DNA of 64,000 nucleotides, from contig JBBIJE010000008.1 of the NCBI GenBank assembly GCA_037446155.1, positions 94,049-158,048 of the forward strand, read 5' to 3'. Both the position numbers and the translations under genes were made by a program. The stretch's first letter is position 1; every line of letters starts with the position of its first letter. Origin of the DNA: Myxococcales bacterium. Lineage in GTDB: Bacteria > Desulfobacterota > Binatia > UTPRO1 > JBBIJE01. Under the pieces are notes generated by a model that saw nothing but the letters and a program-made list of their open reading frames with translations, was not told the DNA's origin and did not search any database. Of this stretch, positions 18,446 through 45,529 are shown in pieces.

Positions 18446-19957
18446 ATGGGGCAGACGATCGCCGCCTCGCCGCCGCGCTTTGGTGTGCGCGCGAAACTCA
18501 TCGTTGCCGCCGCCGCCGTCGTAGCCGCGATAAACGGAGTGGCCATGTGGCGGGCGCTCGCCAACGTCGAAGCGCAAGTTCTCGCCGATGCCAGGCAGCG
18601 CGTGCGCTTGGTGAATTACGCTGTCGAGCGAACCGCGGTAAATCTCATGCTCTCGGGAGAGCCGGATCGGTTGCAGATCTTTGTAAGCTCGCTCAAGGGC
18701 CACTCGGATATCGCAGACGTCAGGATTCTCGACCGAGAGGGAACGGTAGTCGCTTCCTCGGTGCCGAGTGAGCTCCGCACACGGCTTTCGCTGCGCGGTA
18801 TCGGCCTCGTGGTTCCGAGCGAGCGGCAGCGAATTATCGCCGAGCACGCCGGGGAGGGACACTTCTTGACTGTGGTAAGTCCCGTCCGCAACGAGCCGAT
18901 GTGCCACAGGTGTCACTCCGCCTCCGAGCGGTTCAACGGCACGTTTGTGGTAAGCATTTCCATCGACCCGCTGGTCTCGCGCGTTTCCGGGCTTCGTCGC
19001 TACCAGTTGGCTACGGGAACGGGTGCGGTGGCCGCCATGATCGGGGCGCTTTGGGTATTGATCTCGGTTATGGTTAGCCGGCCCATAAACCGCTTCATGA
19101 GCGCCATCTCGCAGGTTCGACGAGGCGATCTGTCGGCCGTCGTGGATGTAAGGCAGCGGGATGAGTTGGGGGCGCTCGCCCAGCATTTCAACGCTATGGT
19201 GGGGGAGATCCACCAGGCGCGCGAGCGGCTGGAAGAGTATCATCGCAGGGAAATCGCCCAAGCGGGCAGACTGGCGAGCTTAGGAGAGATGCTTTCGGGT
19301 CTGGCCCACGAGATCCGCAATCCGCTCGCGGGGATCATCGGGGCGATGGCCGTATTCGAACAGAGCATGGCCGAGGAGGACCCTCGCCGCGAGGTGGTTC
19401 GCGAGGTGGGCGAGCTGGTGCGGCGGTTGGGGAAGACGGCGGACGCGATCTTGACTTACGCCCGACCGTCGCCGCCGTCGTTCGAGCCGATCGACATCCA
19501 CCAACTTCTCGATTACTCGCTATTTCTGGTGGGCGCCGATAAGCCGCGCACTGGGGTTGAGATCGTGCGGGAATACGCGCCATCGCTTCCCGCGCTGGTC
19601 GGCGATCCCAAGCAACTGCAGCAGGTCTTCGTGAACCTGCTTCTCAACGCGCTTCAGGCTGTTGGCGAGCGCGGCCGGATCGTGGTTTCCACGGCGGACG
19701 GCATGGACGGAGGTGTGCGCGTTACCGTCGCCGACGATGGACCTGGGATCGACCCGGCCCACCGGGACTCGATTTTCGAGCCATTTTTCACGACCAAAGC
19801 CAATGGAACCGGGTTGGGCCTCGCGATAAGCCGCCGTCTCCTCGAGGCTCACGGCGCGACCATTTCGCTGGAGGACCGGCCGAAGGGGACCGCCTTTGTC
19901 GTTCATTTGCCGGGACCTCCTCCCAAGGCGGATCTTGGCCGCCAAGGACCGGCGTGA
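18446..19957 (+). CDS. Sensor histidine kinase with a periplasmic domain carrying one c-type haem-binding CxxCH motif.
   Basis: Topology: TM1 (about residues 16-36), a periplasmic domain of about 140 aa containing PMCHRCHS (nt 18902-18916), TM2, a HAMP-like region, the HisKA H-box [12 protein letters not shown], and HATPase_c motifs DDGPGI and GTGLGL. Confidence 0.8.
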
Positions 19958-19985
19958 AATCCCGGCTCACAAACCCGGGTTTTGT
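19958..19985 (+). terminator. Weak rho-independent terminator after the histidine-kinase gene.
   Basis: cccgg (19961-19965) pairs with ccggg (19975-19979), followed by TTTTG. The stem is short and the loop is 9 nt. Confidence 0.35.
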
Positions 19986-20049
19986 CCTTGCGAGCCCAAG
20001 GCCAGGCGGAGGTGCCTTGGGTGGCGAGGGGATGGGTTTTCCTGTGTTT

Positions 20050-20065
20050 TGGCATGAGCGTTGCA
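20050..20065 (+). promoter_or_regulatory. Sigma-54 (-24/-12) promoter upstream of the NtrC-type regulator gene.
   Basis: TGGCATGagcgTTGCA matches the TGGCACG-N4-TTGCA consensus, with GG and GC at the correct spacing. It lies about 220 bp upstream of the ATG at 20287. Confidence 0.55.
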
Positions 20066-20286
20066 GTGGCATACCCCAGACACCAGTTATGGACGGGCGC
20101 AGTGAATAACGCTGTTTTATATGGACTGATTCCGGGCCACCCAGCCGCCCGCATGGGTTTGGCCCTAGAGGTAATTCTCGGCCCCCATCCAGTAGCCTCG
20201 AGGGGGAAGCCTAGTTTGGAGGGCTATACCATTATCGGGCTCGGTGAGCCTGGCGCGGTGAGACGGAAACGCACGAGAGGGGTGCT

Positions 20287-21660
20287 ATGCAGGCGCGGGT
20301 GTTGGTAGTCGATGACGAGAAGCTCATTCGCTGGTCGCTCTCGCAACACCTGACCAAGCAGGGTTTCGAAGTATTTACCGCAGAAGGAGCCGAGGACGGG
20401 CTCAAGCTCTTTAGCGACGAGCTGCCCGAAGTCGTGATTCTCGATGTGCGGCTCAAGGGTGACGATGGTATCGAGGTCCTTCGGAAGATCCGCGAGGTGG
20501 ACGAGGATGTATCGGTTATAATGATTACCGCACATGCCGCCGTCGGCTCGGCCGTCGAGGCGATGAAGCTCGGCGCTTACGATTACATTACCAAGCCTTT
20601 CGAGCTCGACAAGGTCGAGCGTGTGGTGAACAAGGCGCTCGAAGCGGGCCGTCTAAAACGAGAGGTCGCCAGATTCAGGCGCGGACAGAAGCGCAAGTTC
20701 GGCTTCGAGAAGATCGTGGGAAGCTCCTACGCGATGCAGCGCGTTCTGGAGACGGTGGAGAAGCTGGTCGTGAGCGACTTCCATACGGTGTTGCTGCAGG
20801 GGCCCAGTGGATCGGGTAAGGATCTGGTAGCGCGCGCGCTTCATTTCAATAGCGCGCACGCCGACGCGCCCTTCGTGGACCTGAATTGCAGCGCCATTCC
20901 CGAGTCGCTGATAGAAAGCGAACTTTTCGGTTTCGAGAAGGGCGCGTTCACCGACGCCCGAGCCGCGAAGAAAGGGCTTTTCGAACTGGCGGAGGGCGGC
21001 TCGATCTTTCTCGACGAGATCAGCGACATGCCCCTAGGGGTGCAGAGCAAACTGCTCAAGGTGATCGAGAACCGTACGGTGCGCAGGCTGGGGGGACTTC
21101 GCGATATTCCGGTCGACACGCGCGTGATCGCCGCTACGAACCGCCGACTCGACGAGGAGGTAAAAAACAAACGGTTTCGCGAAGATCTCTTCTACCGGCT
21201 AAACGTCATAGCCATAACGCTTCCCTCGCTGGCCGAAAGGCGCGAGGACATTCCGGCCTTGGCACACCATTTCATCGAACAGTTCAATCGGGAGTTTCGC
21301 CGCTCGTTCACCGGCGTAGATCCCGAGGCGATGAACCTGCTTTGCGCTTACCCTTGGCCTGGTAACGTACGCGAGCTACGGAACGTGATCGAACGCGTGG
21401 TGATTTTGGAACAAGGACCGTTGATTCTCCCCGACCACTTGCCCCCCGAGGTCAGAAAGGGCGGCACCCCGGTGCATGACGGTGGCTTTAGATTGGCGCC
21501 GAGCGGGGTATCGCTCGAAGAAGTGGAGCGGAGTTTGGTTTTGCAGGCGATCGAGCTTTCGCACGGAAACCAAACCCATGCCGCCCAGCTTCTTCAGATA
21601 AGCCGCGACGCTTTGCGTTATCGGCTTCAGAAATACGGTCTCCTTCAAGGCAAGTCATAA
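20287..21660 (+). CDS. Sigma-54-dependent response regulator (NtrC/AtoC family enhancer-binding protein).
   Basis: Receiver domain (VVDDE...D54 context ILDVRL). AAA+ sigma-54 activator domain with Walker A GPSGSGKD, the GAFTDA motif (a GAFTGA variant) and ESELFGFEKGAF. C-terminal Fis-type HTH. Confidence 0.85.
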   Translation: MQARVLVVDDEKLIRWSLSQHLTKQGFEVFTAEGAEDGLKLFSDELPEVVILDVRLKGDDGIEVLRKIREVDEDVSVIMITAHAAVGSAVEAMKLGAYDYITKPFELDKVERVVNKALEAGRLKREVARFRRGQKRKFGFEKIVGSSYAMQRVLETVEKLVVSDFHTVLLQGPSGSGKDLVARALHFNSAHADAPFVDLNCSAIPESLIESELFGFEKGAFTDARAAKKGLFELAEGGSIFLDEISDMPLGVQSKLLKVIENRTVRRLGGLRDIPVDTRVIAATNRRLDEEVKNKRFREDLFYRLNVIAITLPSLAERREDIPALAHHFIEQFNREFRRSFTGVDPEAMNLLCAYPWPGNVRELRNVIERVVILEQGPLILPDHLPPEVRKGGTPVHDGGFRLAPSGVSLEEVERSLVLQAIELSHGNQTHAAQLLQISRDALRYRLQKYGLLQGKS

Positions 21661-24594: not shown

Positions 24595-26418
24595 TCAGCC
24601 GGCCGGCGCCTCCTTTTCCTCTGTGCCTAGAGGGCCGTAGCCCTTGGGGTCGTGGTCCTTGCCGTGGCAGGTGAGAAAGCAGCGCCCGCTGTCCGCCCCG
24701 AGTGGTTGAAAGGAGAGAGCCCCGGAGGAGCTGGGCTGGACTATCGGCTCTCCGGTCTCGTCGCGCAGCATGAAATTGATAAGCGCCGGGTTTTGACGCG
24801 AGCCGTGGGGGTCGTGACAGATGGCGCACGAGGATTTTTCCCCGACGATGTGCTTGCGGTGTTTGAAAGGCTGATCGGTAAGGACGGCGGCGCGGTTGTG
24901 GCATTTGTAACAGAGGGCGTACGAGGCGAAAGATTCCTGCACCTCTTGGCCCTCTTGGCGGTATTCGCGCTCGAGAAGGGGCTCGAAATTCGATCCGTGG
25001 GGCCCTGCCGGCCCGGTTCCGCCGGCGCCGGGTCCATCTTCGCTGCTGTGACAGTCTGTACAGTATAAGATACTGCCAGAGGTTAGCGGCGGCTCCAGGC
25101 CGACGATCGTGAAGTTGCGTCCCGGCCCCTCCACGGGGTGGTAGGAGGGGTTTGCAAGATCGAAAGCCAACCTGAGATCGGTCAAGGGGTCTTGGCGCTC
25201 GATCCTCGGGGCGAGCGCGTTCGATATGCCGTGACACTTGAAGCAGACCTCGTACTGAAATTGAGCCTCGGCGATCGAGCTTCCCGCGGCGGTGACTCCT
25301 GAGACGCCCGTCAATGCCCCCGACACCGCCGGAGCCATCCCGGAATCGGGATTCGTCGCATGGGGGTCGTGGCAGTCGACGCACTCCACGTGGCGCGTCA
25401 TGGTGAGCGGGTCCTCGACGGGATCGTGCACGCCGGCTGCGACATCGACCGGATGGCGGCTGAACTTCAGGAACTCCTCAGCGATGTCCTTGGCCGCCAC
25501 GGCTCCGTTGTGACACGCGAGACACACGTCCTCCTCGAGGTCGGATCTGAGCAGCCGGGGGCCGCTCGGGGCCGAGTGCGGCGTGTGGCAGTTCTCGCAT
25601 GCGTTCTCCGCCACGGTTTGAAAGTCGGAGTCGGGCCAAGGGTCGGGGGGCGTTCCGTTCCAGGTTGCGGAAGAGAGCGCGTGGGTGGAGCTCACCCAGC
25701 GATCCGGCCTGTGACAGGCAAGGCAGAGGTCGCCGAACCGCGGGTCGGTGACGAGGAACTTGGGAAACCGGTCGGTATGGGGGTCGTGGCAGCTCGTACA
25801 TTGGAGCTGGCCGGACTGGTCGAGCTTCACGTGACTCGGAAGGAGGTCCGGCGAGACGAGCTCCCCTCGGCGCGAGGCCAGCGTGAGGTCGTAGAGGAAG
25901 GAAATCGGGTGGTCGTCCGAGAGGTCGGTGCCTAGTACCGCACGGCCCGTGAGTGGTCCTGCCGAGGGTGCCGGTCCCCCGCCCGTCTCCCTGATGGCGC
26001 CCAGGGCGAGAGTGCCGTCGTGACAGCTCAGGCAGAGCCGAGAGACGCCGGTCGGCTGCTCGAGCGCCGCTTCCAGTGTCGAGCTTTCGTAAAGCTGATA
26101 CACTTCGAGCGACTGCTCCCGGTTCCAAAGCGCCCGGCTGGGGTTCGCGTTGTGCGGTATGTGGCAGAAGATACAGAGGTTTCCCTCCCCCCCCGCCAGT
26201 CCGATCGATGGATTCGGGACACTCAGATTATGGACCGTCGTCTCGATTCCGGCCTGCGCAAGGGGCACGGCGGGCAAGCGTGCCAAAAGAGCCAGTACCA
26301 GCGCGACGAAGGCCCTGGCGGCTTTGATCCGGGCTCTTTCGCTAACCGCTCGGGTGGCGGTCGCTTGCGCTACAACCGGCGGTCGCAACCCCGAGCAGCA
26401 TCTATTGGCCCCTATCAC
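24595..26418 (-). CDS. Multihaem c-type cytochrome with 11 CxxCH motifs plus one CX3CH (about 12 haems), secreted.
   Basis: Signal peptide ...LLARLPAVPLAQA. Haem motifs are CIFCH, CLSCH, CTSCH, CLACH, CENCH, CLACH, CVDCH, CFKCH, CTDCH, CYKCH, CAICH and CFLTCH. Several are of the doubled CxxCHxPH(N/G) type. Confidence 0.8.
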   Translation of the reverse strand: MIGANRCCSGLRPPVVAQATATRAVSERARIKAARAFVALVLALLARLPAVPLAQAGIETTVHNLSVPNPSIGLAGGEGNLCIFCHIPHNANPSRALWNREQSLEVYQLYESSTLEAALEQPTGVSRLCLSCHDGTLALGAIRETGGGPAPSAGPLTGRAVLGTDLSDDHPISFLYDLTLASRRGELVSPDLLPSHVKLDQSGQLQCTSCHDPHTDRFPKFLVTDPRFGDLCLACHRPDRWVSSTHALSSATWNGTPPDPWPDSDFQTVAENACENCHTPHSAPSGPRLLRSDLEEDVCLACHNGAVAAKDIAEEFLKFSRHPVDVAAGVHDPVEDPLTMTRHVECVDCHDPHATNPDSGMAPAVSGALTGVSGVTAAGSSIAEAQFQYEVCFKCHGISNALAPRIERQDPLTDLRLAFDLANPSYHPVEGPGRNFTIVGLEPPLTSGSILYCTDCHSSEDGPGAGGTGPAGPHGSNFEPLLEREYRQEGQEVQESFASYALCYKCHNRAAVLTDQPFKHRKHIVGEKSSCAICHDPHGSRQNPALINFMLRDETGEPIVQPSSSGALSFQPLGADSGRCFLTCHGKDHDPKGYGPLGTEEKEAPAG

Positions 26419-26431
26419 GTTCCCTCCCTGC

Positions 26432-28525
26432 TCAAAATCTTCTGATGACCTCCAGTGCCACCCTGTCTTCGCGACTATCGGTTGCCAGGACGGAGCGATT
26501 GAAATGATCGTAGCTGAGCGTCCATTCGAGCGCGCGAAGCTCCCCTCTGATCCGCCCCCCGAAATCGAAAAAGTCGGTATCGCCGGAGAGCGAATCGCGC
26601 CGAAGCCTAGCCCCGGCGAACGTCTCGAGCTGAAAAAGGGTGACCGGACGCCAGGTCATGTTGGCGCGAAACGTGTAGAATTCGGTTTCTCGGGTCGGGT
26701 TTTCGAAGCTAACCAACGACTGCGATCCACTCAGGCCCACCCTGAGCCGCGGTGTGAACCTGTACACCACGACTTGGTTGAAATCGAAAGATTCGAAGGT
26801 AAGGCGCTCCGAGCGGTAGTTACGATACTGGTTGAACGCCGAAGCGATCGCCGCCCCGCGCTCCCAGCGAAGCTCCACTCCGGCCGTGTCAGATTTTATG
26901 TCCTCGAGAAATCCCTGATCGTCGCCGCTCATCAGCCTTTCGTAGGTGCGCTCGTTGATGTAGAAAATATGGATCAGGCCGAAGTCGAGACCCACATTGG
27001 AGCTTACAGCGGTCGTCGAGAAACGCAACTCGGGCGGCACTTCGAAGGTATAGTCAACGAGAACCGTTTGCCCTTCCGCGATCAGCCCGAGCGGGTTGCG
27101 CTCCACCTCCAGCCTATCTCCCACCACCGTCAGGCTGTAATCGGGTCCCTCTTCGAAAATCGTCGTTCCGGTCACGTCCGTTATGACTACCGTCGCCGGA
27201 TCGACACGGCGGTTGTCGAGGAAGAACGTGCCGGCGGGACCGAAAGTGTGGCTTTCTGCGAAGACGTCGATCCTGCCTGTCGGGACCGTCTGGTCGTCGA
27301 TCCGATACGACCCTGCCACGCCGGCCAGAAAAAACCCCTGCCACGGGATGCGCTTGCGGTACGAAAGATTCGCGTTGGGGCCGTAAGAGGTGAAATCGCC
27401 TTGGGTGAAGTCCGAGCGTGTGCCGCTTAGCAAAAGGGAACTGTTTAGCGACTGATAATATTGATGGTTGACGCCGACCGAGCCTGAGTGGGTTCTGGTT
27501 TCCGAAAACTCCGATTCCAGGTTCGCGAAGCTGTACCTATAGACGGTGGCGAGGTCCCGGTGATGGGTAAGCCGCAAACCCTCGCTCGCCGTTATCGAGC
27601 GGGACGAGATACTGCCCGAGCGGTCGAAGAGACGGGCCGAGGAGTTGAGGCTGTTATTCGAGAACTCCCCAAAAAGGAGCCGATGGACCACGCTTGCGTC
27701 GTGAGCGGTAAAGCTGCTGAAGGGGTTGAGCAGGTTGTCGAAGTCGGTGAACTCGTAGCGCAGATCGGCGTCGCTTCGTTCTTTCGAATGTCGCGCCGTC
27801 AACCCGGCGATCCGCCGCCTCTCCTCGCGCTCGGAGCGTGAGCCCGCGGCCCTGAACTCCTCGTCCAATTCTTCCTCGCGGGCGTAGACCGTGGCCGGGA
27901 GCGTTCTCGATCTCATGTTGACAGTCGCCCCTTTGGATTCGATCCTGACGTCGGAGGTCCCGGCGAAGTCGCGAGATATCGTGCTGTCGTTGCGAAAAGC
28001 GAAAGCGTCGAGGCTTATTCTTCGCTCTCTCAAGAGCGTCGCCCGCGCATCGTAGCCTATGAGCGTTCCGTCGCCGCTCGGCCCTCCGGCGCTTCCGGAG
28101 TTCTCCTCTTGGAACAAGCCGAACTCCCCTGCAAGCCGAAAGGACAAGAGGTCGGGGCTGTACAGAAAACCTCGGTTGTGGATTCCCAACCTCTCGCGAG
28201 CGAGGAGCCTGCGTAAAGTTACGTCCTCGCCCGAAGCCGGTGAAACGGTTTCGTCGCTGTAATCGGCCCGGCCGATTATCCTACCCCCCCAATCTCCCAC
28301 GCTCAGCCACTGCGCTTCGGCCTTAGCGCCGCCGAGCGCCTGCAACATGGAGCACCCGAGCCCGAGGGCCACCAGCCGGAGAATGCGCCCGCCGGCTCTT
28401 GCGTGCTTCTCGATTGGGCGCCCGCGAGCGAAGGGGCTCTTGGTATCGCCCGCCGTTCCGTTGGTGCTTACCGCCGCGGCAGCCGCACGAGGTCGGAGTG
28501 CGACAAGTTCCCAGTCAGCAGCCAC
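26432..28525 (-). CDS. Outer-membrane beta-barrel protein (porin-like). The exact start is uncertain; a signal-peptide-like segment RILRLVALGLGCSMLQALGGAKA lies about 50 codons into the ORF.
   Basis: 697 aa. C-terminal ...VIRRF ends in Phe, as in Omp85/porin-type barrels. Alternating amphipathic beta-strand pattern rich in Y/F/R/D/S. Its stop is 14 bp upstream of the multihaem cytochrome start. Confidence 0.5.
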   Translation of the reverse strand: MAADWELVALRPRAAAAAVSTNGTAGDTKSPFARGRPIEKHARAGGRILRLVALGLGCSMLQALGGAKAEAQWLSVGDWGGRIIGRADYSDETVSPASGEDVTLRRLLARERLGIHNRGFLYSPDLLSFRLAGEFGLFQEENSGSAGGPSGDGTLIGYDARATLLRERRISLDAFAFRNDSTISRDFAGTSDVRIESKGATVNMRSRTLPATVYAREEELDEEFRAAGSRSEREERRRIAGLTARHSKERSDADLRYEFTDFDNLLNPFSSFTAHDASVVHRLLFGEFSNNSLNSSARLFDRSGSISSRSITASEGLRLTHHRDLATVYRYSFANLESEFSETRTHSGSVGVNHQYYQSLNSSLLLSGTRSDFTQGDFTSYGPNANLSYRKRIPWQGFFLAGVAGSYRIDDQTVPTGRIDVFAESHTFGPAGTFFLDNRRVDPATVVITDVTGTTIFEEGPDYSLTVVGDRLEVERNPLGLIAEGQTVLVDYTFEVPPELRFSTTAVSSNVGLDFGLIHIFYINERTYERLMSGDDQGFLEDIKSDTAGVELRWERGAAIASAFNQYRNYRSERLTFESFDFNQVVVYRFTPRLRVGLSGSQSLVSFENPTRETEFYTFRANMTWRPVTLFQLETFAGARLRRDSLSGDTDFFDFGGRIRGELRALEWTLSYDHFNRSVLATDSREDRVALEVIRRF

Positions 28526-28759
28526 AGGTCATGCATCCTCCACTTTCGGATCTCGGCCGACCGGCCCGACCGCGATAGCCCTGGGAACAATAACGGCAGC
28601 GCGACTCTACAGCCAGCAACCTCCCCCCACCCTCTGGTGTCCTGCAAGCCCAGACGCGAGCTTGCGCCGGCTAGACGGCATTCAGAGCCTAGCGCAAGGG
28701 GGGGAAATCTACAATAATGATTCGTGTCGCGACAATCGCGGTCGAAAGAGGGGAAAGGT

Positions 28760-29905
28760 ATGCGGATCTACGCAGACGCGGGGGGCTCGGCACTTGGTTG
28801 CGTGCAGCGAAGAGGGCTGCGGGCGGGGCTCGTTGCGGTCGCGGGCCTGGTGGCGACGGTGTTCCTTAGCGGCTGCCCTGCTCGGAAATCGGGCATGGAG
28901 CTTATACCGCTCATGTGGCCCGAGCCCCCCGAGACTCCGAGAATCCGGTTCGTCACGGCCTTCGCCAGCGAAAGGGATTTGAGGAGCGGCTTCGATGTGG
29001 GCAAGTTCCTGCAGGACGTCGTCATCGGAAAGCCGCCGCCTGTTTGGCACCTCTACGCTCCGATGGGCGTGGCGGTTTCCGATGACAAGCGGGTTTACGT
29101 TGCCGACTATGGGCAATCGATGGTTTACATATTCGACCTCAAGCGAAACCGCGTAAAAACCATCGGGGAGGACGGAGGCTTCGGTAAGCCCACGGATGTA
29201 GCGGTTGACGCCAAAGGGGAGGTGTACGTTCTCGATCAGCCGAGCAACGCGGTGGTTGTACTCGATGCCGACGGCAATTCGCTTCGGGGCATGGCGCTCG
29301 AGCACGTTATTCGCCCGACCGGGATAGCGATCGACGACCAAAGAGGGCGCATGTACGTGGCGGACTCCTCGAAAAGGGAGTCTACCGAGCACTATGTCAG
29401 GGTGTACGATAAAGAGAGCGGAGCGTTTATCCGAAACATCGGTAACGGCAGGGGATTCGAGGAGGGAAACCTCTACTTTCCCACCTTCGTTGCGGTGGAC
29501 AGCACGGGGAATATCTACGTCTCGGACACGATGAATAGCCGCGTGGTGAAATTCGACCCCGAGGGGAATTTTCTCATGACCTTCGGTAAGAGGGGGGACC
29601 AGTTCGGCGAGTTCGACAAGCCCAAGGGGGTAGCTCTCGATACCTTTGGCAACCTCTACGTGGTCGACTCGAGCTGGAGCAACGTCCAGATCTTCAATCA
29701 ACGTGGCCAGGTCCTTCTCTTCTTCGGTGGCAGAAGCCGCTACCCTGGCATGCTCGAGAACCCAACCGGGATAGACATAGACGGGAATAACACGATTTAC
29801 GTGGCCGATACCTTCAACCGCCGCGTGAACGTCTATCAACTGGTAAATACCACCGCAGGGGACAGCTTTCTCCAGTTGCCCGAGCCGAGCGGGGAGGAGA
29901 AGTGA
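28760..29905 (+). CDS. NHL-repeat six-bladed beta-propeller lipoprotein.
   Basis: Lipobox FLSGC. Repeated NHL blades P.GVAVD..G.VYVAD..N..V..FD. Start chosen at ATG 28760, which has a GAGGGGAAAGG RBS (the ORF-track start at 28724 is a GTG). Confidence 0.7.
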   Translation: MRIYADAGGSALGCVQRRGLRAGLVAVAGLVATVFLSGCPARKSGMELIPLMWPEPPETPRIRFVTAFASERDLRSGFDVGKFLQDVVIGKPPPVWHLYAPMGVAVSDDKRVYVADYGQSMVYIFDLKRNRVKTIGEDGGFGKPTDVAVDAKGEVYVLDQPSNAVVVLDADGNSLRGMALEHVIRPTGIAIDDQRGRMYVADSSKRESTEHYVRVYDKESGAFIRNIGNGRGFEEGNLYFPTFVAVDSTGNIYVSDTMNSRVVKFDPEGNFLMTFGKRGDQFGEFDKPKGVALDTFGNLYVVDSSWSNVQIFNQRGQVLLFFGGRSRYPGMLENPTGIDIDGNNTIYVADTFNRRVNVYQLVNTTAGDSFLQLPEPSGEEK

Positions 29906-30714
29906 AAGGCGCTGGGAGAGCCGCGCGCGCCGCCGTCGTTGTCGGGACGCTTATCGCCGTTGCAGCTTGTCCTCGATTCGCGGCTGGCGGGCCGGATCCT
30001 GGAACCGGCATTACCGATAGCCCCCACGACCTAACCGCGGGGCACGGAACCGCCTCGACGACCGACGAAGCCGCAAGCATTTGCGTCTTTTGTCATGCGC
30101 CTCACGGAGGGGGCGGCCAGGCGCCCGTCAGCACGAGGCTTCTCTGGAACCACAGGCTTTCCGCCCAAAGCTTTAGCTGGAGCGATCAAACCCATACGGT
30201 TGGGGGGACGGAGCTTCCGACCAACATAGGCACATGGGCGGGGCCCAGCAAGAATTGCTTGTCTTGCCATGATGGGACGGTCGCGGTTGGCGATGTTCTG
30301 CGCACCGGTTCTCCTGGGCTCCCCTCGTTTACCGTGACAGGCTCCCGCCTCGTTGACGGGAAGATCGCCGCGGGTAACCTCATCGTGGTCGAACCGGGCG
30401 GAGATTTGAGCGGAAACCACCCGGTCGGTGTGCCCTATCCTTTCGGAGGTGTGCCCAGCACTTACAACAACATCGCCACGGGGCCAGGTGTGGAGCTTTC
30501 CGAGTACGTTGCCGCGCCGGTAAACGTCAAGCTCTTCACCGACATCGGAAATGACGTGATAACCGGACCGACGACCGGGAGGACAGGGATCGAGTGCGGA
30601 AGTTGCCACGACGTTCACAACCGACGGGCCTTGGATCGCCCTCTGTTGCGAGACCTTTTCACGTCGGGGGCAGGGGCTTCGGCGCGTCTTTGCTTGGACT
30701 GCCATAATCTCTGA
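29902..30714 (+). CDS. Tetrahaem c-type cytochrome (doubled-CxxCH type), paralog A.
   Basis: Signal peptide VVVGTLIAVAA. Haem motifs CVFCHAPHG, CLSCHDGT, CGSCHDVHN and CLDCHNL. The GTG start overlaps the NHL gene stop. Confidence 0.75.
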   Translation: MKGAGRAARAAVVVGTLIAVAACPRFAAGGPDPGTGITDSPHDLTAGHGTASTTDEAASICVFCHAPHGGGGQAPVSTRLLWNHRLSAQSFSWSDQTHTVGGTELPTNIGTWAGPSKNCLSCHDGTVAVGDVLRTGSPGLPSFTVTGSRLVDGKIAAGNLIVVEPGGDLSGNHPVGVPYPFGGVPSTYNNIATGPGVELSEYVAAPVNVKLFTDIGNDVITGPTTGRTGIECGSCHDVHNRRALDRPLLRDLFTSGAGASARLCLDCHNL

Positions 30715-30932: not shown

Positions 30933-30948
30933 TGGCATGAGAGTTGCT
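30933..30948 (+). promoter_or_regulatory. Sigma-54 (-24/-12) promoter upstream of tetrahaem cytochrome paralog B.
   Basis: TGGCATgagagTTGCT has correct GG/GC spacing. It lies 60 bp upstream of the ATG at 31009. Confidence 0.55.
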
Positions 30949-31008
30949 CGAAGGGCGTGCCAGGGGCGCCGGTGGCGTGACCCAAATTTCAGGAAGAGGA
31001 GGAAAGCT

Positions 31009-31815
31009 ATGAACGTTAGAAAAGGGTGCCACGTAACAGTAGCCTTGTGCGCGGGGCTTGCGCTGGCGCTCGCTCCTAAGCTCGTGTGGGCCCAGGCCGC
31101 ACCGGGTGCGGGAATCGAAGATAGCCATCACGATTTCACAGCCGGGCACGCGACCGCCTCGACGACCGATGCCGGAGCGGGGATTTGCATCTTTTGCCAT
31201 GTACAGCACCGGCAGGGGGCTCCAGCGACTGCCAGCACGAGGCTTCTTTGGAACCACAAGCTCTCGTCGTTGAGCTACTCATGGAGCGACGTTACCAAGA
31301 CGGTCGGTGGGACGGATTTGCCGACCAACCTTGGGACTTGGGCCGGGCCTTCGAAGAACTGCCTCTCTTGCCACGACGGGACGGTCGCGGTGGGTGATGT
31401 GTACCGTACCGCCGCATTCCCCGCGACGTCGTTCACGGTCACCGGGACCCGGATCACCGATGGGAAGATCAGCGCAAGCTTTCTCCTGATCCCGAGCGCC
31501 ACTGGCGATCTCAAGGGTAACCACCCGGTCGGCGTGCCCTATCCCTTCGGCGGGGCGCAGAGCACGTACAATGGGATCACCACCGGCTCGGGCGTAGCCA
31601 CCGGTGATTACAAAGCCGATCCGCAAAACGTCCGCATCTACACCGACGTGGGCAACGATTACCAGATCGGTGGAACCACCGGGCAGGCCGGAATCGAGTG
31701 CGGAAGCTGCCACGACCCGCACAACAGGGACGTCAAGGAAGATCCGCTTCTTCGCGATTTCTTCACGCTCGGGAGCGGTTCTCCGAGCGCGATCTGCCTA
31801 GACTGCCACTTCTAG
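31009..31815 (+). CDS. Tetrahaem c-type cytochrome (doubled-CxxCH type), paralog B.
   Basis: RBS AGGAAGAGGAGGAAAGCT-ATG. Haem motifs CIFCHVQH, CLSCHDGT, CGSCHDPHN and CLDCHF. It is collinear with paralog A along its whole length, including the shared NCLSCHDGTVAVGDV block. Confidence 0.75.
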   Translation: MNVRKGCHVTVALCAGLALALAPKLVWAQAAPGAGIEDSHHDFTAGHATASTTDAGAGICIFCHVQHRQGAPATASTRLLWNHKLSSLSYSWSDVTKTVGGTDLPTNLGTWAGPSKNCLSCHDGTVAVGDVYRTAAFPATSFTVTGTRITDGKISASFLLIPSATGDLKGNHPVGVPYPFGGAQSTYNGITTGSGVATGDYKADPQNVRIYTDVGNDYQIGGTTGQAGIECGSCHDPHNRDVKEDPLLRDFFTLGSGSPSAICLDCHF

Positions 31816-31863
31816 TTGGCAGGCTGGCCGCGCGGCGCGTGCTAGCCGCTCGGCTGAGGAATG

Positions 31864-31897
31864 AACCCGGGGAGCGATAGGCTCCCCGGGTTTTTTT
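31864..31897 (+). terminator. Rho-independent terminator.
   Basis: cccggggagc-gata-ggctccccggg forms a perfect 10-bp GC stem and is followed by TTTTTTT. It lies 49 bp after the paralog B stop. Confidence 0.75.
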
Positions 31898-31973
31898 GAT
31901 TCCGCTCTCCCTGCGCGGCGGGCCCTGTGCTAACCTTTCCTAAATGAGGTGGACTTGCCGTCGGATGGGGGGG

Positions 31974-32648
31974 ATGAAGCTCATTCTCGCTCGCACTCGC
32001 AGAGTTCTTGGAGCTTGGCGGCTAACTCGCTTGCGCAGCGGATCGCTTAGACTAGTGGCGCTCGCTTCGGCCCTGCTCTTCGTTGCCTGCGAGAGCCGAA
32101 CCCGCTACCTCGTTCTTTCACGACTCGTTGACGGGATGCCGTCTTACGAGGAGTGGCTCGAATCTTCCCCTCCCAAGCCGCTTCGCCGCTATGCGCCGCG
32201 CAAGACTCGCGAGGCTTTGGCTCCCGCCCCCGTAATGCCGACCCCCGAGCCTGCGAGAAACGAGATCGAGCAGGCGAAGGCGAAAGATGAAGCCTTCGCC
32301 ATGCTCCCCAAGGACGATAGCGGTGCCGTGGATTGGGTTGCCGCGCTCCGCGAGGGCGTGATCTCGCCTAGAACCGCGATCGAAGGTGGAGGCGAGCCGC
32401 TGGAGCAGATGCCGATCGACGTGGAGATAGGAGCGGAAGACCCGGCAACGAGCGCGATCTTTCCCCATCCGGCTCATACGCAGATCATACTCTGCGACTC
32501 CTGCCATCCGGAGCCATTCCAAATGGCGGCCGGCTCGACGGAGATGTCGATGGATGCGATGTACGAAGGCCGCCTCTGCGGCCAGTGCCACGGGACGGTC
32601 GCCTTCGGCTTGGAGAGTTGCGGCCGGTGCCATCCGAACATGCGATGA
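31974..32648 (+). CDS. Trihaem c-type cytochrome lipoprotein. The start is uncertain (31944 or 31974).
   Basis: Lipobox LLFVAC. Haem motifs CDSCHPEPF, CGQCHGTVAF and CGRCHPNM are clustered in the C-terminal 60 aa. Confidence 0.6.
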   Translation: MKLILARTRRVLGAWRLTRLRSGSLRLVALASALLFVACESRTRYLVLSRLVDGMPSYEEWLESSPPKPLRRYAPRKTREALAPAPVMPTPEPARNEIEQAKAKDEAFAMLPKDDSGAVDWVAALREGVISPRTAIEGGGEPLEQMPIDVEIGAEDPATSAIFPHPAHTQIILCDSCHPEPFQMAAGSTEMSMDAMYEGRLCGQCHGTVAFGLESCGRCHPNMR

Positions 32649-32983
32649 GGACTCTGGTAGCCTACACTATGAGCCTGGCATTGGGGCTGGGCGTTTGGGC
32701 TGTCTCTGTACCCGTGGCCCAAGCTGGGCCGGGAGACATCGTATTCGAGCGCGAGAAGGCCGTGGGCGTGGACCCAGCCGTCTTCCCGCACTGGATCCAC
32801 CGAATACGCTACACTTGTAGTGTGTGCCATCCGGCGCTTTTTCAGATGAAGCGCGGCGAGGATCCGGTCACGATGAAAAGCATCGCCGCCGGCGAACACT
32901 GCGGTAAGTGCCACAATGGGCGCGTTGCTTTTCCGATCTCGCTCACGACCTGCGTGCGCTGCCACTATATCCCGGCAGACTGA
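32645..32983 (+). CDS. Trihaem periplasmic c-type cytochrome (c7/c3-like, small).
   Basis: ATGA start overlaps the upstream stop. Signal peptide MRTLVAYTMSLALGLGVWAVSVPVAQA. Haem motifs CSVCHPALF, CGKCHNGRVAF and CVRCHYIP. The CxxCHxxxxAF spacing is the same as in the upstream gene. Confidence 0.7.
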   Translation: MRTLVAYTMSLALGLGVWAVSVPVAQAGPGDIVFEREKAVGVDPAVFPHWIHRIRYTCSVCHPALFQMKRGEDPVTMKSIAAGEHCGKCHNGRVAFPISLTTCVRCHYIPAD

Positions 32984-33323: not shown

Positions 33324-33415
33324 CGGCCTGGTAGCCAAGACGGTAGGCCCGGGGGCTTGGCGTGTGGGAGTGGAGGGGCCTCGCTAAGTCCAAGCAGAGA
33401 GGAGGAGGCAGCTTC

Positions 33416-36400
33416 ATGCGAGGACAAGGTAGGACGACATTGGTCATCGGCGCCGTGGGTTTGCTGGCGCTATTTTTTGCGTCGGGTAAAGCCCTTGCCG
33501 ATCCGAGTTATTTCACTTCGCGGTGCGCGCTTTGCCATGCGGACGATACGCCGACTTGTGATGGGTGTCACGGGCACGTGGTTGGGGGCCTCAAGGCTGT
33601 GACCGACAAACAGCAATATTTACCTGGTGAGACGGTTACCGTGACTTTTCAGTCCTGGAATTGGGGCGGTTGGGTTAGGGCGGTCTTGTATGACGAGACG
33701 ATGACGGAAGTGGATCGGGTAACGGGTCCCACGGGGACTGGGGACGATGGTAGTGGGGATCCGAGTCTGTGGTTTCCGGTGGTTTTGAGTGCGCCTGCAC
33801 CTATGGCATCGGGGTTTTACACGTGGAGCGTTGGGTGGTTCGGGAGTCCTGGGACGCCAGGAGGTGCGTACCCGCACATCCAGGATGTGGTTTCCACGAA
33901 CCAGTTCGAGGTGACGACCTCCGGTAGCACCACTACCACGACCAGCACTACTACGACGAGCACCGCGAGCACGACGACGAGCACTGCAAGCACGACGACC
34001 AGCACGGCGACAACGACCTCGACCACGACGACTACGACATTGCCGCCTCCCGCTGCGGAGCTGGATCATTTCTTGTGTTACGCGACGAAGCTCAAGAAGC
34101 TGATTTCGGTAGATCTGAGCGACCAGTTCGATTCAGGAACCTACACCGGCAACGTAGCCAAACTCTTTTGCGCGCCCGCGGACAAGAATGGCGAGGGGAT
34201 CTCCGATCCGGATACGCATCTTCTGTCCTACAAAATCAAGGGCTTGCATGTGGGCCGGACGAATGTGGAGGTTTTGGATCAGTTCGGGACGTACGTCTAC
34301 GACACGAAGAAAACCGATAGCCTGATGATTCCGACGGCAAAGAGCATAGCTCCGGCTCCTCCGCCCGGCCCGCCGAATCCAGCGAGTTTGGTGGATCATT
34401 ACCGGTGTTTGAAGGTGAAGACGAGCGCTGGGACGCCCAAGTTTCCGAAGGACAAGAGCGTTCAGGTTGTGGATCAGTTCGGGGCCGCGCGGACCTTCTT
34501 CGTGAAGAAGCCCTCTCGGTTGTGTTTGCCTGTGGACAAGAACGGGGAGGGGATCAAGAACCCGGACATGCACCTCATGTGTTACAAGGGCAAGACGTCG
34601 GTTAGAACGTCTGCCGTTGGAGTGCAGATCAACAACCAGTTCGGTGCGGATACGATCGCGCTAAAGAAGGAGGCAGAGCTTTGCCTGCCAGCTCGAAAGA
34701 ACCCGCGGAAGGTAAATCCGGGAGACCCGGTGTTGGCGCCGGCTGCCGGGTACATCGGGTCTCCGACCTGCATGGAGTGCCACGAGGAAAAGTACTGGGG
34801 CTGGATCGACACGCTCCATCGGTTGCCGATTCGTGACACCAACGAGCCTGGGCTTACGGGCAAGGCTATCGTGGCGGACAGCGACGGTGACGGGACGGAC
34901 GACTTCAAGGAGGGAACGAATCTCGCAACCGCGCCAAACGCCACCCCATTTGCCGTGTACGGCTCCAACGCGCCGGTATTAGGGTTCGATCCCGGCCGGG
35001 TGGATCCGAACAGCGGAGCGATGGGGGTTTACACTATCACGATCGGGCCCATCACTTACGACATAACCCGCACGCACGGCGGAAACGGGTACTGGAAGCA
35101 ACGCTATCAGACCAGGATAGGTGACAGTTACTACTACCTGCCGGTTCAGTACAACGAGACCGCTAACGCATACGTCGTTTACAATGGCGGCGACTGGTAC
35201 GACGGCTCGAACAATCCGCGCTACACCAATCCTGCTACACTCGAGGCCGACATCGACAAGAGTCGTTCCTACGAGCGCAACTGTGCGGGATGTCACAACA
35301 CCGGCGTCGACGTCGAGGTGGATGGCGCCGGGCAGTGGGTGACAGGGTACGTGGAGCTCGGGATCGGCTGCGAGGACTGCCACGGGCCGGGTGAAACTCA
35401 TGCGGCGAGCATGGATCCCGCCGACATCATAAACCCGGGCAAGTTCGGGCCGTGCGACGGCGACCTGGTTGCGGGCGACGGCAACAAGGACGGTACCTGC
35501 AGGGAATCCGGCGTGCCTTGCGATGCGGTGGATTTACCATTCCCGGTGAACTCTCCTGATTGCCTGGCTTCTGCGAACGAAGTCTGCGGCCAGTGCCACG
35601 GCCGTGGGGCGAGCACCCTGGTGATGAACGGCAAGACGTTGGGCTACCCGGCCAAAGACGACGGTGCCGGCGGCTTCCAGGGGTTCGTACCGGGCAATAT
35701 CCTGGCAGACTTCTACGCCTTCACGACCTCGACCGGGGACTACTGGGGTTTGAACCAGGTGTTTGGCGGGGAAGGGCACACGGTTCCATCGAGCCCGAAC
35801 TCGTTCGTAGCCTCCAAGAGCCATCACCAACAGTACCTCGACTGGCTCATCAGCCCGCACGCGCCCGATAACTTCTACGACCCGACGTGCTTTAGCTGCC
35901 ACGACTCGCACGGAAGTGGTAACGAGCACAACATCGTGGAAAGCCTCGAGGAAGACGGGGTCGAGATTCCGACCAAGGTGGATGACAATAGTCTCTGCTT
36001 GGCTTGTCACGCGACTCACGGCCCCTTTGCGGGCGTGACCAAGGAGCAGGTGGCCGAGATCGGCTCGGGGACCACGCCGCCCGAGATCGTTGACGCCGTC
36101 CTCGACCACATGGCCGAGGAGGCCGGGATGGGTGGAGCCTACGATCCACTGGGATCCGGTGTGGGCCGCTGCACGAGCTGCCATCTGCCGCAGCTTGCGA
36201 AGTCGGCGGTAGGGGGCACGGATGCCGAGGGACACACCACGGGCGACGTTACCACTCACACCTTCACGATCATCTGGCCTAGCGTGAACGAGCGCCTGAC
36301 CGGAAGCGACAAGAGCATGAGCAACTCCTGTACCGGCTGCCACAGCACGGGCTCGCCACTCGGCATGGACGAGGAGCTCTTCGAGTGGGCCAAATCGGGC

Positions 36401-37330
36401 CACGCCGACTTGACCGCACGGCACTGGCGGTATGCGGCGGGCGAGGAGCGGGCGGCTTGCGTGCGGTGTCACTCGGGCAACGGGTTCGTCGATTTCCTCG
36501 CGGGGATCCCCGAGGGGGATCGGCGCACCGAGCCCAAGATGGTCACCTGCTACGCTTGTCACGACGGGACACCGGGCGACTTGCACCCGGTGCGCGCGGT
36601 GGCTTCGGTGACCTTCCCGTCGGGGTCGGTTATCACGGCGGGTGACGATGCCAAGATCTGCATGAACTGCCACCAGGGCAGGCAGAGCAAGAGCAGTGTG
36701 GACACGTACCTGCTGACCCACCCCGATCCGAGCCCGATCAACTTCGGCTCCGTCAACCCGCATTACTTCGCGGCTGCGGCGGTCTTCTTCGGCTCCTCGG
36801 TTAGCGGTATGTACCAGTACGACGGCAAGACCTATCTCGGTGAGTCACCCCACCGGCCGTTCAAGGGTTACTGTCTCGACTGCCACTTGAGCGAGACGCC
36901 CGGTAGCGACGACGTGGGCGGGCACACGATGGCGATGGTCGCCGACGGCCAGGAGAACACGGCAGGTTGCGGTTGCCACGCTTCTCAACCTGGCTTGGAT
37001 GCCTACAGGAACCCGTTTGGCGGAGCCGTGGACTACGACGGCGATGGGAACACCTCCGAGGGCATCAAGGGTGAGATCCAGACCATGATGGACGATCTCA
37101 TAGCGGCTCTGAACGCTGCCGGCATCACCTGCACCGACTCGTATCCGTACTGCTCGGGCTGGAACGGCACGACCGAGCAGCAGAAGAGCCAGCTCAAGGC
37201 CGCGTACAACTACCGGTTCTTGAAGACCGAGCATGGCGCTTATGCCCACAACGGGCTGTACGCGCTCCAGATCTTGCACGACTCGTATGCAGATTTGACG
37301 GGAGGCCCGCACGCAGGTGTAAGGCCCTAG
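33416..37330 (+). CDS. Giant secreted multidomain c-type cytochrome of 1304 aa. Order: N-terminal dihaem module, Thr/Ser-rich linker, four copies of a cysteine-containing repeat, then a C-terminal multihaem domain of about 12 haems, for about 14 CxxCH in total.
   Basis: RBS GAGGAGGAGG. Signal peptide LVIGAVGLLALFFASGKALA. CxxCH motifs are CALCH, CDGCH, CMECH, CAGCH, CEDCH, CGQCH, CFSCH, CLACH, CTSCH, CTGCH, CVRCH, CYACH, CMNCH and CLDCH. The linker is about 40 residues of S/T. Confidence 0.8.
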   Translation: MRGQGRTTLVIGAVGLLALFFASGKALADPSYFTSRCALCHADDTPTCDGCHGHVVGGLKAVTDKQQYLPGETVTVTFQSWNWGGWVRAVLYDETMTEVDRVTGPTGTGDDGSGDPSLWFPVVLSAPAPMASGFYTWSVGWFGSPGTPGGAYPHIQDVVSTNQFEVTTSGSTTTTTSTTTTSTASTTTSTASTTTSTATTTSTTTTTTLPPPAAELDHFLCYATKLKKLISVDLSDQFDSGTYTGNVAKLFCAPADKNGEGISDPDTHLLSYKIKGLHVGRTNVEVLDQFGTYVYDTKKTDSLMIPTAKSIAPAPPPGPPNPASLVDHYRCLKVKTSAGTPKFPKDKSVQVVDQFGAARTFFVKKPSRLCLPVDKNGEGIKNPDMHLMCYKGKTSVRTSAVGVQINNQFGADTIALKKEAELCLPARKNPRKVNPGDPVLAPAAGYIGSPTCMECHEEKYWGWIDTLHRLPIRDTNEPGLTGKAIVADSDGDGTDDFKEGTNLATAPNATPFAVYGSNAPVLGFDPGRVDPNSGAMGVYTITIGPITYDITRTHGGNGYWKQRYQTRIGDSYYYLPVQYNETANAYVVYNGGDWYDGSNNPRYTNPATLEADIDKSRSYERNCAGCHNTGVDVEVDGAGQWVTGYVELGIGCEDCHGPGETHAASMDPADIINPGKFGPCDGDLVAGDGNKDGTCRESGVPCDAVDLPFPVNSPDCLASANEVCGQCHGRGASTLVMNGKTLGYPAKDDGAGGFQGFVPGNILADFYAFTTSTGDYWGLNQVFGGEGHTVPSSPNSFVASKSHHQQYLDWLISPHAPDNFYDPTCFSCHDSHGSGNEHNIVESLEEDGVEIPTKVDDNSLCLACHATHGPFAGVTKEQVAEIGSGTTPPEIVDAVLDHMAEEAGMGGAYDPLGSGVGRCTSCHLPQLAKSAVGGTDAEGHTTGDVTTHTFTIIWPSVNERLTGSDKSMSNSCTGCHSTGSPLGMDEELFEWAKSGHADLTARHWRYAAGEERAACVRCHSGNGFVDFLAGIPEGDRRTEPKMVTCYACHDGTPGDLHPVRAVASVTFPSGSVITAGDDAKICMNCHQGRQSKSSVDTYLLTHPDPSPINFGSVNPHYFAAAAVFFGSSVSGMYQYDGKTYLGESPHRPFKGYCLDCHLSETPGSDDVGGHTMAMVADGQENTAGCGCHASQPGLDAYRNPFGGAVDYDGDGNTSEGIKGEIQTMMDDLIAALNAAGITCTDSYPYCSGWNGTTEQQKSQLKAAYNYRFLKTEHGAYAHNGLYALQILHDSYADLTGGPHAGVRP
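33915..34045 (+). repeat. Low-complexity ACC/ACG/AGC codon repeat encoding the Thr/Ser-rich linker inside the giant cytochrome gene.
   Basis: About 130 nt of imperfect triplet repeats (accaccacgaccagcactactacgacgagcacc...) encoding TSGSTTTTTSTTTTSTASTTTSTASTTTSTATTTSTTTTTT. Confidence 0.5.
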
Positions 37331-42847: not shown

Positions 42848-42884
42848 TGCGGAAAAGCGCGCACCGCGTGAGAATTGCCGCGGT
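42848..42884 (+). promoter_or_regulatory. Dyad element TGCG-N8-CGCA with a degenerate GAGAAT-containing copy about 21 bp downstream (candidate UAS).
   Basis: TGCGGAAAAGCGCGCA (42848-42863), then CGCGTGAGAATTGCCGCG. They lie about 90-125 bp upstream of the sigma-54 promoter at 42973. Confidence 0.4.
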
Positions 42885-42972
42885 CATTGTTGTGGCGGCC
42901 TTCGTGTGTAACTGCGCCTCGTTTAAAGGCCTTCGCTAGGCCCCGCGGGTGTGGTGGCGCTGCAATTGCTGA

Positions 42973-42988
42973 CGGCATGCGGCTTGCA
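42973..42988 (+). promoter_or_regulatory. Sigma-54 (-24/-12) promoter upstream of the haem/PKD/NHL paralog operon.
   Basis: cGGCATGcggcTTGCA has correct spacing. It lies about 55 bp upstream of the TTG start at 43043. Confidence 0.55.
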
Positions 42989-43042
42989 TCGGCCTGTCCG
43001 CGGTCCCAGTGTCTCAAGCCTGGGGCAGGAGGGGCATGCGTC

Positions 43043-45517: not shown

Positions 45518-45529
45518 AGGCTTTGAAAG

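Follow-up and report, generated by a model that had tools for sequence, protein, structure and literature searches.

Among described gene clusters, the closest to the locus examined here is uet of 'Candidatus Tenderia electrophaga' and the Tenderiales. Its ten genes, uetABCDEFGHIJ, encode a tetrahaem cytochrome (UetA), a prolyl isomerase (UetB), a beta-barrel (UetC), c7-type trihaem cytochromes (UetD, UetE and UetG), a cupredoxin (UetF), NHL proteins (UetH and UetI) and an undecahaem cytochrome with doubled CxxCH motifs (UetJ) (10.1101/2022.05.06.490989). UetC, predicted at 28 strands, was proposed to enclose a cytochrome in the way that MtrB encloses MtrA; the authors modelled its pore at about 5 nm and suggested that some component of the system might polymerise (10.1101/2022.05.06.490989). 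Hoover et al. treat Uet in Gallionellaceae as a porin-multihaem-cytochrome complex and name potential UetJ proteins, some with 11 haems and some with 12 (PMC10734462). Probably of the same kind is the occ cluster found in 'Ca. Dechloromonas occultata', which encodes the undecahaem cytochrome OccP (10.1101/695007). Here we compare these systems with a pair of genes, one for a beta-barrel protein of the outer membrane and one for a secreted 12-haem c-type cytochrome (C12), found in 64,000 nucleotides of contig JBBIJE010000008.1 from a Myxococcales bacterium (assembly GCA_037446155.1), a stretch that we call the window.

Other systems share parts of this design. The minimal OmcE cluster of the Desulfuromonadia comprises two multihaem cytochromes, two beta-propeller lipoproteins, OmcE and a large beta-barrel (10.1101/2025.10.22.684050). 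In G. sulfurreducens, the osc (omcS-companion) cluster encodes a beta-propeller-like OscD and channel-like OscEFG, according to those passages of PMC13194489 that report Shen et al. 2025. The MtrCAB system of Shewanella and the OmbB-OmaB-OmcB and ExtABCD systems of Geobacter likewise encode a large barrel together with multihaem cytochromes.

On balance we think that the barrel and C12 form the outer-membrane core of a conserved OmcE/Uet-type extracellular-electron-transfer module, in which C12 would act as a trans-outer-membrane wire within the barrel. The evidence for this lies in the anatomy of the two proteins, the coupling of their genes, a recurrent gene order, the covariation of the two families, the match of C12 to OmcE, the remote homology of the barrel to those of uet-like loci, the best TM-score of the barrel model (to MtrB), and the published proposal for Uet. 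As far as family models and gene content go, the pair is neither a homologue of the Mtr or porin-cytochrome (Pcc) complexes nor an orphan oddity, and belongs to a widespread kind that has already been described. A first-pass annotation of the window had proposed a porin-cytochrome conduit. That proposal is partly supported. It agrees with the module context and with the same suggestion made for Uet, but kinship with the Mtr conduits does not hold, as the barrel does not match MtrB_PioB and the cytochrome is not of the MtrA/DmsE family.

The barrel and its 12-haem cytochrome

Both open reading frames (ORFs) lie on the minus strand where the first-pass annotation had placed them, and the barrel does end in phenylalanine (Table 1). 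The two genes are tightly coupled: the barrel stop ends at 26432 and C12 begins with a GTG at 26418, leaving a 13-nt spacer, and a ribosome binding site, GGGAGGGAAC (GGGAGGG), precedes the GTG. The barrel ORF opens with 51 codons that its homologues do not share, and translation probably begins at the GTG at 28372, which would give a protein of about 646 residues with a signal peptide ending in AKAEA, before QW.

An AlphaFold2 model of the barrel built on a seven-sequence alignment is entirely beta, with a mean predicted local distance difference test score (pLDDT) of 82. Hairpins of 2-7 residues connect its 28 long strands, the first of which follows directly on the signal peptide. The barrel fold suspected from the sequence is supported by the model. 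The remark that the protein is larger than MtrB applies to its strand number (about 28 against 26) but not to its chain, which is no longer than that of MtrB (649 residues in 6R2Q_B). No Pfam or NCBIfam model matches the barrel, and in nine family members not one Pfam family gave a match even at E<=10, the TonB-dependent, Omp85, usher, LptD and MtrB_PioB models included; the model shows no plug, POTRA or LptD N-terminal domain. The first-pass annotation had named a TonB-dependent or Omp85-type protein as the alternative that would speak against a conduit, and these searches give no sign of either. Foldseek against the PDB returned large outer-membrane barrels only (LptD, TonB-dependent transporters, FimD and SlpA), at 8-10% identity and with TM-scores of 0.25-0.41, the best being 0.41 to MtrB (6R2Q_B, 8% identity).

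Between barrel strands 17 and 18 (E346-362 and E448-463) the model places an inserted domain of six short strands with pLDDT 76-86. No part of the protein is better conserved: in a 162-sequence alignment E424, L436, D462, Y463 and Y492 are each kept in at least 92% of members, and outside it the alignment conserves Y389, R695 (159 of 162) and the terminal Phe (129 of 162). The conservation suggests that the inserted domain is probably functionally important. We considered His426 of this domain as a haem ligand and dropped it, since only 101 of the 162 members have it. A sub-threshold match of residues 413-495 to a phage 'tail tube' model of NCBIfam was also set aside, as it probably reflects beta-sandwich resemblance and not homology.

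C12 carries 11 CxxCH motifs and one CX3CH (CFLTCH), five of them in CxxCHxPH form, in agreement with the earlier count. This 11+1 pattern is not due to chance, since it is common to all 61 aligned family members. Pfam assigns Paired_CXXCH_1 (E 1e-31), with further matches to Cytochrome_C7 and an MtrC/MtrF domain, and NCBIfam gives sub-threshold partial matches only, including weak ones to periplasmic NrfB/DmsE-type models. The Sec signal peptide, of the signal peptidase I (SPase I) type, ends in PLAQA, before GIETTVHNL, and has no lipobox; 108 of 120 family members are likewise without a lipobox-like match, and the ones inspected carry ordinary signal peptides. There are 28 invariant histidines, 12 in the haem motifs and 16 elsewhere. 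These suffice for bis-histidine ligation of all 12 haems, so C12 looks like a wire and not an enzyme, and no CxxCK or other catalytic-site signature was found in it. The family is large: of 8,000 candidates scored, at least 5,900 match at E<=1e-5. Identity is 51-60% for the best 120, apart from one near-identical copy at 90%, and their length is about 560-630 residues; the named hosts among these 120 are Gammaproteobacteria, Acidobacteriota, Planctomycetota, Rokubacteria, Methylomirabilis and Omnitrophica.

The alignments identify the N-terminal third of C12 as an OmcE-like domain, homologous to an extracellular filament subunit. Residues 35-237 match PDB entry 7TFS (chain residues 2-231; phmmer E 1.3e-23), which is the OmcE filament subunit (PMC11936953), and the domain also matches OmcE of D. 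soudanensis (9YUQ, E 9.7e-17). In a joint alignment with OmcE, none of the four CxxCH motifs varies, nor do the further ligand histidines.

A conserved module and its described counterparts

To place the pair in context we used contigs that carry barrel homologues (L001, L003 and L004), others found through the cytochrome (L005-L007), and a search of GTDB, each species represented by one genome, with an OmcE alignment as the sole query, which yielded 80 loci from many phyla, annotated with local hidden Markov models (HMMs). The order NHL, OmcE-like, c7, c7, barrel, NHL, C12 recurs in L001, L003, L005 and L006, and a varied form of it is found in L007 and many other loci; across the 80 loci the recurrent order is OmcE-like, NHL, barrel, NHL, C12. 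A barrel and an OmcE-fused multihaem cytochrome (modal number of CxxCH motifs, 11) are both present in 57 of the 80, and barrel, NHL and C12 genes are directly adjacent in 34. Barrels without the cytochrome occur at three loci, all on contigs of 6.4 kb or less. Every component of the cluster ranks its relatives alike, L001 and L003 first and then L005-L007, whose barrels are clear homologues (E 1e-74 to 1e-86, 29-32% identity over the full length).

The type of barrel and the OmcE-fused cytochrome covary: 11-haem proteins in the UetJ position carry the OmcE domain, whereas Geobacter-type clusters, which have an unrelated barrel, lack a fused cytochrome. In Geobacter-type operons, an OmcE-like protein with additional haems has been sought without success (10.1101/2025.10.22.684050). 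Such a protein is encoded in clusters of the window type and of the uet type.

The module always includes OmcE-type tetrahaem genes and NHL propeller lipoproteins, and usually c7 trihaems. The barrel and C12 are one arm of it and not a conduit complete in two genes. The lack of a separate periplasmic octahaem cytochrome, once listed as an oddity, is no anomaly either, because the module supplies its own c7 trihaems as likely periplasmic partners. Three features only are peculiar to the window: it has no NHL gene between barrel and C12, its cluster is split into two divergent operons, and it has two OmcE-like paralogues.

The divergent operon holds the rest of the module. The tetrahaem and trihaem genes noted nearby in the first pass prove to be two of each, and an NHL gene adjoins the barrel here as in nearly all related loci. 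The product of OmcE-like gene 1 matches 7TFS over its full length and aligns with G. sulfurreducens OmcE, and OmcE-like protein 2 is 72% identical to its L001 orthologue. The annotated ATG of gene 2 (30937) falls inside a sigma-54-like motif, so its start is probably the ATG at 31009, which would give 268 residues and a signal peptide ending in KLVWA, before QAAPGAG. The motif is no more than suggestive of a promoter: sites of this kind number 65 across the window against 56 expected, which is not above chance, and most related loci do not keep them at the corresponding places. Between this site and the strong terminator-like hairpin directly after it, gene 2 has the look of a structural-subunit gene that is expressed on its own and at a high level, as some pilin genes are. 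Of the two trihaem genes, the second likely starts at the ATG at 32645, overlapping the stop of the first. The closest solved relative of both is PDB 3OV0, which we take to be GSU1996.

An exhaustive profile search recovered 2,404 representatives of barrel clusters (50% identity) at E<=1e-3, of which 1,006 also reach E<=1e-30. Word-indexed searches had given six relatives and the impression of a rare family, which was an artefact of their prefilter. Shorter variants of about 600-610 residues occur in L012 (10673-12484) and L029 (10799-12631); they match the family profile piecewise, at positions of about 38-365 and 540-645, and the middle region, including the inserted domain, is missing or diverged.

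Loci with the barrel and OmcE-like genes are found in metagenome-assembled genomes (MAGs) labelled Verrucomicrobiota, Bacteroidota, Planctomycetota, Acidobacteriota and Calditrichota, as well as in others labelled Nitrospinae, Nitrospirae, Methylomirabilota (Rokubacteria) and several classes of Proteobacteria. One further locus, L046 (JBHHWA010000004.1), comes from a MAG labelled as a Thermoplasmata archaeon and has OmcE-like, NHL, a weak barrel match (E 1.7e-7), NHL and a C12 homologue. An outer-membrane barrel is unexpected in an archaeon without an outer membrane, and this contig may be mis-binned.

For the comparison with uet we used loci that match the published gene order, fully in L069 and L076 and partially in L055 and L059, in place of authentic Tenderia sequences. 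The part list agrees in the tetrahaems (the OmcE-like genes being equivalent to UetA), the c7 trihaems and the NHL protein, and the barrel of about 28 strands and the 12-haem cytochrome are candidate counterparts of UetC and UetJ. The barrel family is remotely homologous to the UetC-position barrels of L055, L069 and L076 (hhalign probability 95%, E 3.9e-8, 344 columns), although the similarity is only remote and most of these barrels fall under the HMM thresholds. The UetJ-position proteins share the OmcE-like N-terminal domain of C12 (independent E down to 2e-43), and their C-terminal part resembles that of C12 weakly, at 48-75 bits. The differences lie in composition and arrangement. Among the window ORFs scanned (4956-52465) there is no prolyl isomerase corresponding to UetB and no cupredoxin corresponding to UetF, and the window has one NHL protein against two, two trihaems against three, two tetrahaem paralogues, and 12 haem motifs against 11. 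Its barrel gene is directly upstream of that for the big cytochrome, and its cluster is divided between divergent operons. By these comparisons the window pair is nearest to uet, yet it is not a canonical uet cluster.

The resemblance to the omcE cluster (the GSU0618 region of G. sulfurreducens, and D. soudanensis) extends to OmcE-type tetrahaem genes with four CxxCH motifs and four ligand histidines, an adjoining beta-propeller lipoprotein (lipobox LSGC in the window), a large unannotated barrel and additional multihaem cytochromes. The Geobacter-type locus L008 (Geobacter sp.), for example, has resB, ccsB, two cytochromes of about 330 residues (one with 10 CxxCH), NHL, OmcE, an 806-residue unannotated protein and glycosyltransferases. 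However, no homology was detected between the window barrel and the barrels of such clusters, neither the 806-residue protein of L008 (hhalign probabilities of 1% and 13%) nor those of L013 and L016. Moreover, the Geobacter-type accessory cytochromes are about 330 residues long with 8-10 CxxCH and lack an OmcE-like domain, and the window has no glycosylation genes. The osc cluster, which we compared by description only, is alike in concept in that dedicated companions are encoded beside a nanowire cytochrome. It differs in that OmcS is a hexahaem protein unrelated in sequence to OmcE, and in that the window has no OscH-like prolyl isomerase.

Possible mechanism and competing explanations

If the barrel and C12 are the outer-membrane core of the module, electrons might take the following route. 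Periplasmic c7 trihaems from the divergent operon would exchange electrons with the C-terminal eight-haem part of C12, which would sit in or pass through the barrel as MtrA does in MtrB. The OmcE-like N-terminal domain would emerge outside the cell and contact free OmcE-like tetrahaem subunits, which may polymerise, and the NHL propeller lipoprotein may help to assemble or hold the complex. A supply of electrons to C12 from c7 trihaems would be in line with the proposal that periplasmic triheme cytochromes charge OmcS filaments directly (PMC10954620). It is tempting, though decidedly tentative, to go further and regard the complex as a 'nanowire socket', with C12 as the dedicated base subunit of an OmcE-type filament, its N-terminal domain co-polymerising with the tetrahaems and its eight-haem tail running through the 28-strand barrel to the c7 pool. 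If true, such a complex would anchor, nucleate and electrically charge the filament.

Several observations weigh against a wire held in a barrel. The TM-score of 0.41 to MtrB is, on the model, a generic resemblance between large barrels, and the window barrel departs from MtrB in strand number and in the missing Pfam match. The single-chain AlphaFold2 prediction for C12 (40-sequence alignment) has a pLDDT of 43 and gives no reliable shape or width. In uet-type clusters the barrel gene adjoins the tetrahaem and prolyl isomerase genes and not the undecahaem gene, and for this reason the uet gene order fits a role in secretion equally well. The authors of the work on OmcE bundles read the large barrels of the omcE and omcS regions as 'secretion or anchor' (10.1101/2025.10.22.684050), and even in Geobacter there is dispute over what OmcE filaments do physiologically (PMC13194489).

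That the N-terminal third of C12 is itself OmcE-like opens a reading in which the barrel is chiefly an usher-like pore that secretes or anchors haem-loaded OmcE-like subunits, the inserted domain being a plug or docking site and C12 an extracellular base, tip or terminator subunit. We regard this, the main rival of the conduit reading, as possible but rather unlikely as the main function. Textbook geometry, and not our model, gives a 28-strand barrel a lumen of about 4 nm. A lumen of that width, or of the 5 nm modelled for Uet, would be wide enough for a folded tetrahaem domain, and the sole conserved element outside the strands is a small inserted beta domain, as usher plug domains are; the usher FimD is among the Foldseek matches. 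The place of the uet barrel after a tetrahaem and a prolyl isomerase fits as well, as do the promoter-like site and strong terminator of OmcE-like gene 2, an arrangement often seen for major filament-subunit genes, and just such a role for large barrels is proposed in the preprint on OmcE bundles (10.1101/2025.10.22.684050). However, the barrel has no sequence similarity to ushers, no chaperone or prolyl isomerase gene was found among the window ORFs scanned, and it is the fused multihaem cytochrome, not OmcE alone, with which the barrel covaries. Secretion or anchoring and electron conduction are not mutually exclusive.

A soluble periplasmic C12, acting as a carrier, capacitor or reductase and lying beside the barrel through co-regulation only, would agree with its SPase I signal peptide, with the absence of a lipobox or membrane anchor, and with the weak partial matches to periplasmic NrfB/DmsE-type models. 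We nevertheless consider it improbable. The invariant histidines are enough for bis-histidine ligation throughout, C12 shows no CxxCK or other catalytic-site signature, its N-terminal domain is a homologue of a filament subunit that lies outside the cell, and in more than 10 phyla C12 and the barrel occur together almost obligatorily. In addition, the related UetJ and OccP are predicted to be extracellular (10.1101/2022.05.06.490989; 10.1101/695007).

True homology to MtrAB/PioAB or to the OmbB-OmaB-OmcB complexes is very improbable. The logic of a barrel with a multihaem cytochrome is shared, the chain length is similar to that of MtrB, to which the best TM-score also belongs, and C12 has partial matches to DmsE-family and MtrC-domain HMMs. 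But these matches cover partial stretches only and fall far below the cutoffs (TIGR03508, the MtrA/DmsE family, 59.8 bits against 192.2; OmcA/MtrC, 21 against 209), placing C12 outside that family, and it carries an OmcE-like domain; nor did any of the nine barrel family members match MtrB_PioB at E<=10. OmbB has about 20 strands and MtrB 26, against about 28 in the window. From the Pcc complexes, which we set apart by description and not by sequence comparison, the window differs in having neither an octahaem gene in the operon nor a lipoprotein outer cytochrome, and from Mtr and Pcc systems alike in that NHL propellers and OmcE-like genes are integral to its module. Least probable of all is an unrelated transport role (a nutrient porin, or lipopolysaccharide or polysaccharide export) for a barrel beside a cytochrome by chance: the barrel has no functional annotation and LptD and TonB-dependent transporters are among its top Foldseek matches, but the synteny with cytochrome genes is kept in more than 50 loci from many phyla, and the protein lacks a plug, a POTRA domain and the N-terminal domain of LptD, and matches no family.

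Surrounding genes and implications

Beyond the core, the window encodes a sensor histidine kinase and a sigma-54-dependent response regulator that are candidate regulators of the cluster; the same pair adjoins the cluster in L005 and L007. A sigma-54-like site nearly identical to the one before OmcE-like gene 2, TGGCATGAGCGTTGC, lies at 20050-20064, between the kinase gene and the gene for the sigma-54 activator. Downstream of the c7 genes, a 1322-residue protein is probably a large surface cytochrome, and DUF7450 proteins are also found near the cluster in L003.

Table 1. Coordinates of the barrel, the cytochromes and associated features in the window
Feature	Position	Strand	Basis or remarks
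Sensor histidine kinase (sCache/HAMP) and sigma-54-dependent response regulator	18446..21660	plus	Pfam
C12, secreted 12-haem c-type cytochrome, 607 residues	24595..26418	minus	11 CxxCH and one CX3CH
OmcE-like tetrahaem domain of C12, residues ~56-240	25699..26253	minus	phmmer to 7TFS
Outer-membrane beta-barrel protein	26432..28525	minus	697-codon ORF; C-terminus ...LEVIRRF
Inserted small beta domain of the barrel, ~85 residues (ORF residues ~414-498, model 363-447)	27032..27286	minus	AlphaFold2 model
NHL-repeat beta-propeller lipoprotein	28724..29905	plus, divergent from barrel	Pfam NHL 6e-31; ...VFLSGC/PARK
OmcE-like tetrahaem cytochrome 1, 270 residues, 4 CxxCH	29902..30714	plus	7TFS, E 1.4e-15
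Sigma-54-type promoter-like site	30933..30947	plus	TGGCATGAGAGTTGC; 1 mismatch to TGGCAC-N5-TTGC
OmcE-like tetrahaem cytochrome 2, 4 CxxCH	30937..31815	plus	7TFS, E 6.6e-10, full length; 9YUQ, E 5.1e-9
Terminator-like hairpin, strong, intrinsic	31863..31893	plus	13-bp stem with 9 G-C, then TTTTTGATT (T-run); immediately follows OmcE-like gene 2
c7-type trihaem cytochrome a, 234 residues, 3 CxxCH	31944..32648	plus	NCBIfam nanowire_3heme 2e-18; possible lipobox LFVAC
c7-type trihaem cytochrome b	32585..32983	plus	NCBIfam nanowire_3heme 8e-21; PDB 3OV0, E 3e-45
Accessory cytochrome, 1322 residues, 14 CxxCH, two DUF7450 repeats, long Ser/Thr-rich linker	33362..37330	plus	Outside conserved core

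Directly downstream of the C12 gene, at 21879-24347 on the minus strand, lies a gene for an 822-residue secreted protein that contains thrombospondin type 3 repeats and gives a weak vWA-like match, preceded by a sigma-70-like promoter match (TTGACA-17-GATGAT, 24468-24440). We place it outside the core module because no contig but the near-identical L004 keeps it. A second pairing (42875-47380, plus strand) stands about 5 kb away from the main cluster and consists of an 880-residue NHL/PKD/DUF7450 protein followed by a 616-residue cytochrome with 13 CxxCH. Further away, at 4956-7652 on the plus strand, there are genes for a MoxR-type AAA ATPase, whose bpMoxR domain is that of MoxR-vWA-beta-propeller ternary systems, and, after it, for a protein with a VWA domain.

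In L001 (4671-6772) and L003 (1-1822), the closest non-identical relatives of the window's cluster, a Rieske/cytochrome b (bc-type) complex and c-type cytochromes are encoded immediately upstream of the cluster, and L003 also has FeoAB iron-transport genes nearby. These neighbours are hints of a link to iron or to electron flow at the level of quinol, one that has no counterpart in the window itself.

The findings bear on how nanowires made of cytochromes get out of the cell, attach to the outer membrane and receive electrons, matters on which the functional evidence is contested even in Geobacter. The module described here is far more widespread than the Geobacter systems, and it joins two literatures that have so far been separate, those on the Uet 'porin-cytochrome' and on OmcE nanowires. 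What is new is the size of the barrel family, the OmcE-fold N-terminal domain of C12 and of the UetJ-position cytochromes, the link between Uet and OmcE, and the conserved domain inserted in the barrel. The barrel and C12 families, which are without specific annotation, could serve to mark extracellular electron exchange in metagenomes, and the barrel with its OmcE-fused C12 is a concrete candidate for the link between periplasm and filament.

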